DNA of 64,000 nt from Eledone cirrhosa. Its lineage: Eukaryota. The stretch covers positions 268,460,001 to 268,524,000 of the forward strand of contig OZ024740.1 in assembly GCA_964016885.1 (NCBI GenBank), in the 5' to 3' direction. Position 1 is the stretch's first letter. Every line of letters begins with the position of its first letter. The notes under the pieces were generated by a model. That model saw only the letters and a list, made by a program, of their open reading frames with translations, did no database searches and had not been told where the DNA came from. The translations under genes and the position numbers were made by a program. This document shows, piece after piece, positions 3,478 to 46,289 of the stretch.

Positions 3478-3830
3478 TAGAAAGTGAGGTTTTTTATACA
3501 AAATGAAAAATAACCGAGGTATCCTACACGAGTGAAAGTATAAAGAAAAAGAGATGAAATCGAAAATGCAACTGGAGTCTTATTTTTTTTTTAAATATAT
3601 ATATTTATTTGGTTCCTTTACCGGTTTCGCAGTTCTTCTGCTTTTCAAAAGGTGATTGAGATGGAGGGTCTGTGGTTTTTCTCAGTGAGAAAAATCACAG
3701 ACCCTCCATCTCAACTCACCTTTTGAAAAGCAGAAGAACTACGAAACCGGTAAAGGAACCAAATAAATATATATATTTTTTAAAAAAATAAGACTCCAGT
3801 TGCATTTTCGATTTCATCTCTTTTTCTTTA
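3478..3830. mobile_element. Fold-back mini-element with U3-A8 HHR in both arms (3615-3652 minus, 3719-3756 plus)
   Basis: Inverted arms of about 145 bp, apex near 3685, extra left tail, (TA)n on both sides; CCUU-UUGAAAA-GCAGaagaaCUGC-GAAACCGGUA-AAGG; relative at 52790-52930. Confidence 0.8.
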
Positions 3831-4634: not shown

Positions 4635-4706
<72 letters not shown>

Positions 4707-4707
<1 letters not shown>

Positions 4708-5520
4708 TTCTTTCGTTACTTTGGTATTGTATGGTTGGGTTTTGCCTACCGCAATGTTCAATTTGTCAAGCTATTTATACGTATGTTATTACTCTAAGGA
4801 CCTACCAACCCTTATTGAGTGCTTTGTTAACTCATTCCTATTGTAGGTCGACTTTGCTTGGCTACAACCAAAGCTTTGATTATACTAAGCTTCCACTTGT
4901 ATTATTCTCCTAGATTTAATAAATAACTAATTAATGTAATTAGACAATTCTGTTGATTGGTTAATTATTTGTGTTTGTTTAATAACATCTGGTTGAGAGC
5001 TTTTATTCGGAACGTTTGAGCGGAAATTATAATATTTCCCTTGTTAACACTTTGAATTTACCCGCCAAAAACCGGGGGTTGCTTCCCTTGTTGGAAATAA
5101 CACGTGACAACGAAATGTTCGTAGGCTGCCTTCTGTAGCGGTCGCATTTAGTTTATTCACACCAGTTTGAAGCAGAACGGAATCCCTGTTGATGAAATGC
5201 ATCCTCTGTTTGATCATGGAATACCACGAGCTTGCGTGTTACATAAGTTGGATAAATGATTTTGGATTCATAGAAATACCTCAGACGTATATCGTTTGAT
5301 TTGTGCAGGTGTGTTGTTTAACCTGTTAGTTCTTTCGTTACTTTGGTATTGTATGGTTGGGTTTTGCCTACCGCAATGTTCAATTTGTCAAGCTATTTAA
5401 ACGTATGTTATTACTCTAAGGACCTACCCTAATTGAGTGCTTTGCTAACTCATTCCTATTGTAGGTCGACTTTGCTTGGCCACAGCCAAAGCTTCGATTT
5501 TACTAAGCTTCCACTTGTAT
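4707..5520 (+). mobile_element. Partial-tandem element (about 200-bp direct repeats, unit about 620 bp) with degenerate long-stem-II HHR at 5185-5284
   Basis: 4707-4910 repeated at 5329-5520; CUG-UUGAUGA-AUGCAUCC...GGAUUCAU-GAAA...CAG. Confidence 0.6.
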
Positions 5521-6606: not shown

Positions 6607-6812
6607 ATGATTTCTAGTATAGGCACAAGGTCAGTAATTTATTTTTGGGGGGAGTCGATTAAATCGACCCAGTACGTCACTGGTGCTTTATTTTATCGAC
6701 CCCGTAAGGATGAAAGGCAAAGTTAACCTCGGTGGGATGTGAACTCAGACCATAAAGGACCGTAACTCTATGCTGCAAAGCATGGTGTCCGATTCTACCG
6801 ATACTGCCAATG
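6607..6812 (-). mobile_element. tRNA-derived SINE with Meta-like core
   Basis: B box GAGTTCACATCCC and core TTTGCCTTTCATCCTTACGGGGTCGATAAAATAAAG; many copies in the window. Confidence 0.85.
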
Positions 6813-7484: not shown

Positions 7485-8745
<1,261 letters not shown>

Positions 8746-31018: not shown

Positions 31019-31519
31019 TATGTATACGTACATAGATATATGTATACAAACGTACAGTAGTATGTATATATATACATACATGCACAAATATATATGTACG
31101 TATGGGTTTACCGAACATTTATTATAATGTTCGGTTTGTTTGTAAACAAACAGCATAAGGAAAGTATATACTTTCAGACGTTCAATCATCTGGCAGGAAG
31201 GTATACGATGCTGACGATAGCTAATAAGCTTGAAACTAGTACATCGTTCCTGTGTCAGTGTTGAACCAAAGGTGACGTTGGTTGCCTGAACGCTGTACGG
31301 CGAAATTCGGGCTGTTTGTTTGTTTACAAACAAACCGAACATTATAATAAATTTTCGGTAAACCCATACGTACATATATATGTGTGCATGTATATATATA
31401 TATATATACATACTACTGTACGTCTGTATACATATATGTATGTACGTAGACATACATACTTACATTTAAGTATCAGCCGTACTAAGAATGAGAAATGAAA
31501 TTTCGTTTCATTGTTTTCC

Positions 31520-34942: not shown

Positions 34943-34945
<3 letters not shown>

Positions 34946-35535
34946 AGTAAAAATTAGCGAGAATCGAATTTCAGCCTATGAAATAACGAAAAAAACACAT
35001 TCGAATTGTGAGGCAAGCGCTCAATAATTCAAAAGAATTAGAGCTTACAACTTACGTTAAAGGCCAAACACACTGAGATGGTGGTTAAACTAGTTATCCA
35101 CACAGCGAAGATTCGATCTCCTATTTCGGGTCAAACAGATATACAGATATAAAAATATATGGAAGCATAAATGTTTTATACTCACCGGACCCCTGGAATG
35201 ATGGTAAAGTCCAGTGTTGGGGTTTCTGCGGCTCCAAAAGTTAATTACTGTCCACTTACATAAAGGATGTTAAGTTTCTCGTATCCTGACTCAACTAGGA
35301 GTGCGCGTTATCAACGGGATTCAGTTCTGAAGACCACATAGATGTGTCTGTAACTGACCCCACGTGGGGTTCAGCAAGGGAGGCAACAGCTGAATTAGGC
35401 GAATGAATTCATCTGTGTATAATATTGCGAAAATGCAAAATATCACAAATCGAATGAAGTTCTCGACAGAGTGGTTAAATATAACAAAGCTATTCGGCAG
35501 TCAATAGAATAGACCAGAACCAGTCAATAAAATTA
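34943..35535 (-). mobile_element. Family B element
   Basis: Diverged, collinear homolog of 44580-45125; (TA)n flanks. Confidence 0.7.
35185..35317 (-). ncRNA. Large HHR with U3-A8 core and extended stems II and III
   Basis: CCG-UUGAUAA-cGCGcaCUCC...GGAGcCGCa-GAA-ACCC..CUGGA-loop-UCCAG-GGGU-C-CGG. Confidence 0.7.
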
Positions 35536-35536
35536 A

Positions 35537-36225
<689 letters not shown>

Positions 36226-40361: not shown

Positions 40362-41080
40362 AATTTATATCTAGTAACATTTATATACATACAGATGCAT
40401 ATCAATGCAATGCTAGCAAATATATAGGTTTTGTCTTAGTAACATTGTGGTTCAATGCATGGGGTTGCAGAACAATAATATGAGAGACGTAAGATAAGAA
40501 AATTATAAAATTATAAAAAAATTATAAAATTGACTTACTTACTAAAATATCACTTCCAACTAATTAGTTTCTGGAATGGAGTAAATATATTTTCCGAAGA
40601 ACATAATGAAAAGCATTCTGTCGTCAGGAAAGTCTCTTTTCATGTAAGTTTCCAGGTATAGCGAGGACCCTGGAAACTTATTAAAAAAATAATTCAGTGG
40701 AGTGGAAATAGCGAAGCGTGGACTGAAATCCTAGCCATTGAGAAAATCACTGTCTCTACGTCCGTGGCAAATTCAAAAAGAATCAATCACGTGACATCGA
40801 GGTCAATCAGTGGAAAGCGAGTTGTTAAAAAGACAGCGGCCTGCCTACTACTATAGCAGCAGTCATGGCCAATATTGCTCGACAAATGAATTGAAGATAA
40901 TTATAAAGAATTTATATCTAGTAACTTTATAGAGACTTTCCTGACGACGGAATGCTTTTCAATATGTTCTTCGGAAAATATATTTACTCCATTCCAGAAA
41001 CTAATTAGTTGGAAGTGATATTTTAGTAAGTAAGTCAATTTTATAATTTTTTTATAATTTTATAATTTTCTTATCTTACG

Positions 41081-44533: not shown

Positions 44534-44579
<46 letters not shown>

Positions 44580-44582
<3 letters not shown>

Positions 44583-45125
44583 GAATAATCGAGTATCGAA
44601 AAATCGGCGCACGAGTTCACGATAAACAAAATTCGAAATGAGCGGCAGAGGGCTCAATAATTCAGATAAATCAGAGCTATAACTATCGTTAAAATACCGA
44701 CACACATAGAACATGTCTAAAATCAACCATACGACCGAAAAATTACGATCTGGAAGATTCGGGACACTCAGATAAAATATCAATAAATCAATAAATCAAA
44801 TGAATGTAAAAAGCATACCCGGACCCGCTAGAAAGATGGTAAACCTAGCTTCTTGGGTTTCTGTAAATCCTTAAACCGCCCTCTATCAGCCCACATAAAA
44901 ATATATAAGACTTCTAGAAAGCAGCGGACCGGAATTTACTTCCTCAACGAGCTTTTGTCCGAACGAATAAAAAGGCATAACCCGAGTTGAAAAAACACAC
45001 ATGGAATTCAGCAAGGGAGATAACCTCTATATCCGCAAAAAATATTCGGGAAAATGTGGAAATACACATATCGAATAAGAGTGCTCAATAGACATGTTAA
45101 AATAAACAGGAGCTATTCATCATTT
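44580..45125 (-). mobile_element. Family B element with large HHR at 44818-44951
   Basis: CUCG-UUGAGGA-aGUAAAUuCC...GGAUUUACa-GAA-ACCC..GCUAG-loop-CUAGC-GGGU-C-CGGG. Confidence 0.7.
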
Positions 45126-45604: not shown

Positions 45605-45710
45605 TATTTTATCTGATGAAAGCACACCATAATTTAACTTGGTGTCCTTGAAATATGTATAATGAAATAAATATGGTTTTATAAATATAGTTTCCATTTG
45701 TTAATATCGT
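45605..45710 (+). mobile_element. Naiad-family terminal fragment with HHR
   Basis: UUUUAU-CUGAUGA-..ACACCA..UGGUGU..-GAAAUAUGUAUA-AUGAAA. Confidence 0.65.
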
Positions 45711-46289
45711 ATATATATATATATATATATATATATTAAGACAGGGGGGAAGAAAAAATGGCTTCACTTGTGCTTTCAACAAATTTATTTTCTTCACAAA
45801 ATCCAAAAAGAATTTTTCTTAAAAAAAATTATTTTATAAATTAAGTTGTTGGTTGTTGGTTAGGTCTTAGGAGTTCTTGGTTAACGTAGGAGGTATTGTT
45901 TCGTTTTTAGAAAGACCTTTCACGCTGAGGTGCGCTTGTCAAACTGATGTGTATGTGGTGTGTTGTTCTATATATAGGGATTTAACATGTCTGTGGTCTG
46001 GTAGGGGTTTCTTTTCTCCCCCTTTAATAAGTGCATGGGTGTAGGTGTGTTGAAAAAGTGTTCATAGCAGTAATGAGTTGAGACGGTGAGTAGGGTTGGT
46101 GGGGAGAAACTTAGCAAGTGCGGCCTGCCCCGGTCATTCTCGAAAAATTCCTTTATTCAGGGGAAAAAGCTTTTAGCATCGCTTTTGTGTTGAGAATGGT
46201 CACAGGCAAATCGCACCTATCAAGCTTGTGAATAATTCTTTTTTTCTTTTTTTCCTGAAGAATTTTTTTGTGTTGAGAAATGGTCATCA

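Follow-up and report, generated by a model that had tools for sequence, protein, structure and literature searches.

The locus and its features

The window, the whole 64,000-nt stretch of DNA analysed here, carries three copies of a repeat with a hammerhead-type motif (Table 1). Relative to the predicted cut, element 1 spans −349 to ~+243 and element 2 spans −303 to ~+243. The first-pass annotation had described these two elements on the minus strand, with a particular stem I, stem II base and bulged, two-part stem III for each, and this description holds; a sequence check likewise confirmed, for both, the ~60-nt insert and the G-U-C triplet, along with a shared 9-nt loop motif. Helix II comprises 75–80 nt, and the motif extends ~125 nt from the core to the predicted cut. 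Helix II of element 1 consists of a base helix, an asymmetric internal loop with the predicted pseudoknot bulge (35292–35295), and two more helices. Element 1 is slightly damaged compared to its 96%-identical relative L012, with one G missing from stem I and one substitution in the pseudoknot bulge. No open reading frame of at least 150 codons runs across element 1 or element 2, and no protein match to Penelope-like elements (PLEs) extends into the inspected units.

[quoted passage not shown] It has a 1096-codon relative in the genome (L083), its named homologues are mostly bivalve, and its 3' end is also present as an inverted copy at ~45740–46110. Small hammerheads of other families are present at 31211 (+), 54670 (+), 35989 (+) and 35849 (−), the last two forming a near-perfect inverted repeat (35820–36018) that adjoins element 1. 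A further hammerhead-like core, absent from the descriptor scan output, was recognized by eye at 45610–45680 (+).

Table 1. Positions of the three repeat copies and of their predicted parts in the window
Feature	Position	Strand	Remarks
Element 1, 5'-truncated unit, 593 of ~624 nt, between (TA)n tracts	34943–35535	−	Row L358 of the end map
Element 1 leader segment (predicted pseudoknot, 5' strand)	35323–35327	−	
Element 1 stem I, 5' strand	35315–35318	−	
Element 1 core, 5' half	35307–35314	−	U3 U4 G5 A6 U7 A8 A9 and unpaired C10.1
Element 1 helix II, ~80 nt	35228–35306	−	Evidence includes relative L012
Element 1 core, 3' half	35223–35227	−	A11.1 G12 A13 A14 A15.1
Element 1 helix III	35189–35223	−	Proximal helix, bulge, distal helix, loop
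Element 1 loop III motif, 9 nt	35200–35208	−	Not invariant in the family
Element 1 predicted cut, after C17 (35188)	35187–35188	−	Hammerhead geometry and 5'-end pile-up in relatives
Element 1 stem I 3' strand (35184–35187) and its alternative partner (35127–35131)	35127–35187	−	AU-rich spacer between the two
Element 2, 5'-truncated unit, ~546 of 612 nt, between (TA)n tracts	44579–45124	−	Row L456 of the end map
Element 2 hammerhead-type motif	44817–44961	−	
Element 2 leader; stem I	44957–44961; 44948–44951 with 44817–44821	−	
Element 2 core	44941–44947; 44940; 44862; 44861	−	U3.G8; A10.1; A11.1; G12
Element 2 helix II bulge; loop III motif	44925–44929; 44835–44843	−	
Element 2 predicted cut	Between 44822 and 44821	−	Hammerhead geometry
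Element 2 downstream segment, alternative partner for stem I (3' strand)	44760–44764	−	
Third, more distant superfamily member, 1.3 units	4706–5519	+	Partial tandem duplication
Motif of the third member	5156–5315	+	Different loop III, damaged cleavage triplet; 73 bits

A non-coding repeat superfamily

The motif is part of a ~610-base non-coding repeat superfamily, with a unit of 607–624 nt, in a 3.0-Gb animal genome. A pattern for the full motif minus the loop gave at least 5052 genome matches, compared to one in the control, and 1041 matches were obtained with a 3'-half pattern, compared to none; the motif is not a chance occurrence. A pattern that leaves the 3' half free returned 6504 matches, some of them counted doubly (control 87), and a pattern for alternative helix III sequences returned 1205 (control 6). 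The copies take the form of singles in (TA)n, 1.x-mers, dimers and arrays with tens of units, at periods of 607–624 nt and with one hammerhead-type motif per repeat unit. Long near-identical arrays of two subfamilies, with periods of 609 and 615, are found at G000:C1:81.71–81.75 Mb and at C1:13.09, 36.02, 44.27 and 49.83 Mb, suggesting recent amplification; these are possible master loci.

The fetched loci yielded 120 motif hits (99 distinct), which form 39 clusters at 88%. Unless stated otherwise, copies are counted below in an aligned set of 73, obtained from 75 covariance-model matches by removal of two truncated ones; their mean pairwise identity is 60%. A sequence-only alignment of 37 representatives and a model-fitted alignment of 74 distinct rows were used for analysis of the helices. 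In five loci of relatives, no Rfam family attained its gathering score, and the motif itself scores below that level there; there is also no hammerhead among the best 150 of 267 Rfam matches in the window, all of which are microRNA-type hairpins. Pattern searches of metagenome and viral collections, which are poor in animal DNA, gave 82 and 74 matches, respectively. Since all of these score at most 17.8 bits with our own model, compared to 70–156 bits for the 73 full-length family members, they were treated as chance.

Helices and overall fold

RNAalifold, applied to the sequence-only alignment, returned stem I, the base of stem II and stem III, and both sides have changed in 6 of 11 pairs. 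In the same 37 representatives, cognate strands pair better than swapped strands for stem I, the stem II base, and the proximal and distal parts of stem III (p ≤ 0.0002 for each), in a test that retains the shared ancestry between copies. In the model-fitted alignment, which is biased towards the model, both bases have changed in 22 of 29 pairs, and 79.9% of cells are paired, compared to 31–43% when the strands are slid; the middle helix of the insert aligns poorly, with 53% paired. The stems had been reported as covarying between elements 1 and 2. Compensatory changes are indeed present in stems I, II and III, but an all-pairs covariation test with a tree-based null on the sequence-only alignment returned no significant pair (best E 0.87). 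Unconstrained folding gives the junction in the intact copies L012 and L039; the full junction is not the minimum-energy state in window elements 1 and 2, and the folding energy is no better than that of shuffles in four of six copies. Collectively, the alignments support a type I hammerhead-like fold, in which three helices would be arranged around a junction with helix I open.

Catalytic core

The residues expected of a hammerhead core (U4, G5, A6, A9, G12, A13, A14, the A15.1-U16.1 pair and H17) are each present in 70–73 of the 73 copies, a conservation that is in part selected by our own search patterns. Of these, G5, A9, G12, A13, A14 and A15.1 occur in all 73, and U16.1 and C17 are kept in 70. 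Among the rows listed for the pattern that leaves the 3' half free, G12–A15.1 was found by eye in 100 of 100, ~58 of which are array copies; of the 92 rows starting at stem I, 90 have the G-U-C triplet.

The core departs from the canonical one at two places. Position 3/8 is U-A in 50 copies, U.G in 18, C.A in three and C-G in two. U3 is thus found in 68 of the 73 aligned copies, and in 98% of genome matches; the C3 matches genome-wide (78 of 5052) belong mostly to one C3.A8 subfamily, with C3-G8 in only two, and U3.G8 is fixed in several subfamilies. The second departure is at 10.1/11.1, where A (43 copies) or C (30 copies) faces an A11.1 that is present in all 73. As these bases are never paired, the motif is classed as a variant and not as a canonical hammerhead core. 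Element 1 combines U3-A8 with a C.A mismatch, and element 2 combines U3.G8 with A.A.

A shifted core register, with an insertion after A6, was also considered and is less likely, because the canonical C3-G8 hammerheads here share the same unpaired bases flanking helix II, which fixes the register. Canonical-core hammerheads gave 38 descriptor hits in the window and 50 PLE loci together, compared to none in five shuffles of the window. Large C3-G8 hammerheads, with a helix II of 38–49 nt, are located at 40941 (+), 37730 (−) and 3369 (−), with 10.1/11.1 mismatches C.A, U.U and A.G, respectively; the first of them has an inverted copy at ~40560–40630.

Loop III, a predicted leader pseudoknot and a possible alternative hairpin

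The loop closing helix III was regarded in the first-pass annotation as invariant, and as a possible site of a tertiary or protein contact. In the further homologs, only 23 of 73 copies have the exact loop, and 47 fit a looser pattern. When loop III was paired against the leader, the bulge in helix II or the insert, cognate sequences did no better than swapped ones (p 0.56, 0.33, 0.08 and 0.13). Cognate pairing with the 3' tail is marginal (p 0.04), with no covariation by inspection, and none was detected with a downstream G-rich segment. A key contact of an invariant loop III with another part of the RNA or with the reverse transcriptase is very unlikely in our estimate: the similarity of the loop in 47 copies and the retention of its C-A-x-C core across subfamilies in which distal helix III has changed on both sides speak for such a contact, but the loop is replaced in a deep clade of 14 copies, including the third window copy, that still spread, and no covarying partner was found. 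As judged from these comparisons, loop III is a lineage-conserved loop without a detected partner; a protein contact is possible in the subclade that keeps it.

A different contact is predicted between helices I and II. A leader segment of 4–6 nt, located 8–18 nt before U3, complements the unpaired bulge of helix II in 32 of the 37 representatives, with a cognate energy of −4.7 kcal/mol compared to −3.9 kcal/mol for swapped strands (p 0.0002), while two slid controls were null. In the sequence-only alignment, 85% of the cells of this putative pseudoknot are paired, and three of five pairs have changed on both sides. The changes include A-U to G-C in the clade of element 2 and C-G to A-U nested inside it, and therefore amount to few independent events.

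The 3' strand of stem I also matches a segment 10–70 nt downstream, with which it could form an alternative hairpin. At the variable position of this hairpin, the pair is Watson-Crick in 64 copies, wobble in two and mismatched in one, and it is absent in six; the cognate energy is −6.8 kcal/mol compared to −6.2 kcal/mol for swapped strands. When two units were folded as circles, the hairpin was complete in one and partial in the other. Since the tree contains essentially one compensatory event, a switch between the two pairings is proposed tentatively.

Ends of the insertions

Insertions were retrieved by motifs located only 3' of the predicted cut, and the first listed matches were taken; 87 insertions of the element 1 subfamily were mapped from the first 90 of 177 matches, and 65 of the element 2 subfamily (mostly U3.G8) out of 381. 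The 5' ends accumulate immediately behind the predicted cut in both subfamilies. Positions 0 to +29 hold 31 of the 87 ends in the former (6.5 expected, p ~1e-12) and 29 of the 65 in the latter (4.5 expected, p ~1e-14), the expectations being weighted by TA microhomology. No other 30-nt bin contains more than seven or four ends, respectively, and the 30 nt before the cut contain three and two, with one element 2 subfamily end, at −5, adjoining an assembly gap. Four ends lie at −1 to +3, and in most others trimming extends to the next TA-like bases. The footprint is weaker in a mixed C3.A8/U3-A8 group (5 of 27, with five rows that are duplicates of one flank). Taken together, ~40% of the sampled copies of the two subfamilies end just behind the predicted cut, which suggests that the RNA self-cuts in the cell before copying.

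In the element 1 subfamily, 46 of the 87 insertions pass through the predicted cut and 18 are longer than one unit. By hand count, three of eight stop at the second pass in each of two subfamilies, and one more stops at the third. Such second-pass stops speak against a mere mixture of closed circles with linear monomers; they fit partly cut multimers, reopening circles or a stall of the enzyme.

The 3' end is fixed, at +242 to +244 in 66 of the 87 insertions of the element 1 subfamily, and is followed by (TA)n. The unit of element 2 and L434 have three short degenerate internal repeats, located on both sides of the fixed 3' end; in six subfamilies, a long and conserved hairpin begins ~15–20 nt past this end. 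The repeats and the hairpin may constitute an initiation signal.

Probable mobilization by Penelope-like elements

The insertions show traits of the PLE type: their 3' end is internal and fixed, the targets are AT-rich or (TA)n, truncation at the 5' end varies in extent, and partial tandem repeats occur. The fixed end is 243 nt from the predicted cut and has only a few TA-like bases in common with the target. Targeting of (TA)n is reported in several PLE clades (PMC8557442), and a PLE protein has been described as initiating internally at AT-rich DNA in vitro (PMC11167929). GIY-YIG-bearing PLEs are plentiful, with 10596 candidates in the genome. A young family of coding PLEs, with ORFs of 938 and 844 codons, carries a minimal U3-A8 hammerhead at its 3' end, seen at 3648 (−) in the window and in L081, L082, L086, L090 and L092. 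From our own reading of the cysteine linker motif, this family would be of the Neptune/Nematis type, and it is a candidate mobilizer.

Unlike PLE hammerheads, the large motif is absent, in intact form, from the 50 coding PLE loci examined, a small sample of the 10596 candidates. None of 303 loci, some of which overlap, contains a two-armed insertion in which copies of one subfamily meet head to head across a short gap; 5'-truncated inverted arms are described as typical for PLEs, being frequent and not obligatory (PMC8557442). Because neither a coding element with the large motif nor a two-armed insertion was found in these samples, PLE dependence is something that we infer.

Proposed mechanism and alternative explanations

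We consider it likely that the repeat is a non-LTR retrozyme dependent on a PLE reverse transcriptase/endonuclease that acts in trans, and that its type I hammerhead self-cleaves, partially, as a monomer. Read-through transcripts of dimers and arrays would fold the three-way junction. The long helix III would make the dimer on which minimal PLE hammerheads rely unnecessary, and instead of the usual loop-loop contact, a leader/helix II-bulge pseudoknot of 4–6 bp would dock helix I with helix II. The U3-A8 or U3.G8 core, together with the mismatched 10.1/11.1, would make cleavage incomplete, at roughly 35–45% of sites. The PLE enzyme would then nick (TA)n and start at the fixed internal site via a few TA-like bases. 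Run-off at a cut RNA end could produce the short inserts, trimmed to the next TA-like microhomology, and passage through an uncut or religated site could produce inserts longer than one unit and tandem arrays. After cutting, the 3' strand of stem I may refold with its downstream complement and turn the ribozyme off.

The pile-up of 5' ends might also be produced by a structure with the shape of a hammerhead and no appreciable cleavage, in which a junction locked by the pseudoknot halts the reverse transcriptase or binds a PLE protein, and is maintained by selection. The stop probability is similar at the first and second pass, most ends lie at +5 or later, where the enzyme would meet stem I, and whole subfamilies tolerate U3.G8 and C3.A8 in the core, all of which would fit a stall. 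One PLE tested in vitro inserts without need for hammerhead cleavage, and RNA ends at the site were not seen in that work (PMC11167929). However, some ends lie exactly at the cut (0, −1 and +3 in the element 1 subfamily, 0 in the element 2 subfamily), and long predicted hairpins elsewhere in the unit give no pile-up. The retention of G12, A13, A14, A9, U16.1 and C17, while neighbouring positions drift to 39% identity, also argues against a purely structural role, and we judge this explanation improbable. Even less credible is an origin of the pile-up from a transcription start, or from splicing at a donor-like sequence behind the predicted cut. Promoters and introns have been described in PLE terminal repeats (PMC6765202, PMC4209133), and in most subfamilies stem I is followed by a G-U dinucleotide in a donor-like context, but one subfamily (L151, L153, L156, L162) lacks it, no conserved acceptor A-G is found downstream, and the onset of the pile-up coincides with the predicted cut within one base.

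Beyond partial self-cleavage by a PLE-dependent retrozyme, a more specific proposal, which we regard as rather doubtful, is that the leader-to-bulge pseudoknot on the 75–80-nt helix II rescues a core that should be crippled by U3.G8 or C3.A8 together with A.A or C.A at 10.1/11.1, that activity is tuned to ~40% cutting, and that the alternative hairpin switches off a ribozyme active as a monomer. If true, cutting at this level would allow one RNA population to yield both short run-off copies and tandem multimers, and the genome would record in vivo cleavage efficiency for each core variant.

Relation to known retrozymes and hammerheads

This type of element is already known, and its individual parts have separate precedents. 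The family here shares with metazoan non-LTR retrozymes tandem units that are non-coding and low in GC (36–38%) and carry a type I hammerhead apiece, the occurrence as monomers, dimers and arrays, and a proposed PLE dependence (PMC7229834; bioRxiv 10.64898/2026.07.22.740005). The unit of 607–624 nt is longer than the 170–400 nt given for the experimentally studied metazoan retrozymes, and lies inside the range of 51–972 listed by Li, Clavereau and Pollet 2026 (bioRxiv 10.64898/2026.07.22.740005). Compared to these retrozymes, the present family is distinguished by a hammerhead of ~125 nt, a helix II of 75–80 nt, a long helix III, a non-canonical core and the predicted pseudoknot. [quoted passage not shown]

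The architecture had been called the opposite of the minimal PLE hammerheads. This applies to helix III: it spans 29–41 nt in two helices, and does not match the very short, palindromic and dimer-dependent form of the minimal motif. Animal PLE hammerheads are described as having a short helix III and depending on dimers (PMC6765202). It does not apply to helices I and II or to U3-A8, which resemble Schistosoma PLE hammerheads. The Cercyon hammerheads of Schistosoma are reported to have a short helix I, here 4–5 bp, a long, enlarged helix II with an unpaired base on its 5' side, and U3-A8 (PMC4209133). A large helix III is shared with fungal and protist PLE hammerheads, of which a Serpula variant is described as active as a monomer; the cited account of these large-helix-III motifs reports no recognizable contact between helices I and II (PMC4209133). 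The motif here differs from PLE hammerheads in combining these traits in one animal motif, and in its extra A on the 3' side of helix II, the ~60-nt insert and the predicted leader pseudoknot.

A helix I–II pseudoknot is shared with bacterial and phage hammerheads and with that of a human C10orf118 intron, and natural U3-A8 and a mismatched U.U at 10.1/11.1 have been described in this group (Perreault et al. 2011, PMC3088659). The partner in helix II is a terminal loop in those hammerheads and an internal bulge of a long arm here; at 10.1/11.1 the mismatched bases are A.A or C.A, and several subfamilies have a fixed U3.G8. We found no published description of this combination of traits or of the repeat family, and the supplements of Li et al. 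may list large families.

On a single scaffold, the family provides a natural series of cores (U3-A8, U3.G8, C3.A8 and C3-G8), and for each of them the genome shows the position of template ends. How far the hammerhead tolerates changes at the 3–8 pair, and what cleavage contributes to PLE-type retrotransposition, thereby become directly testable. As a result of the prevalence of U3 and the very long helix II, descriptors based on the canonical core miss this motif, and counts of animal hammerheads are therefore likely underestimates. Hammerheads in other tandem units were also observed, at 6800 and 7259 in L082 (a dimer of a ~459-nt unit, with a helix II of 50 nt) and at 8168–9653 in L091, where four copies of a unit of ~490 nt are present.
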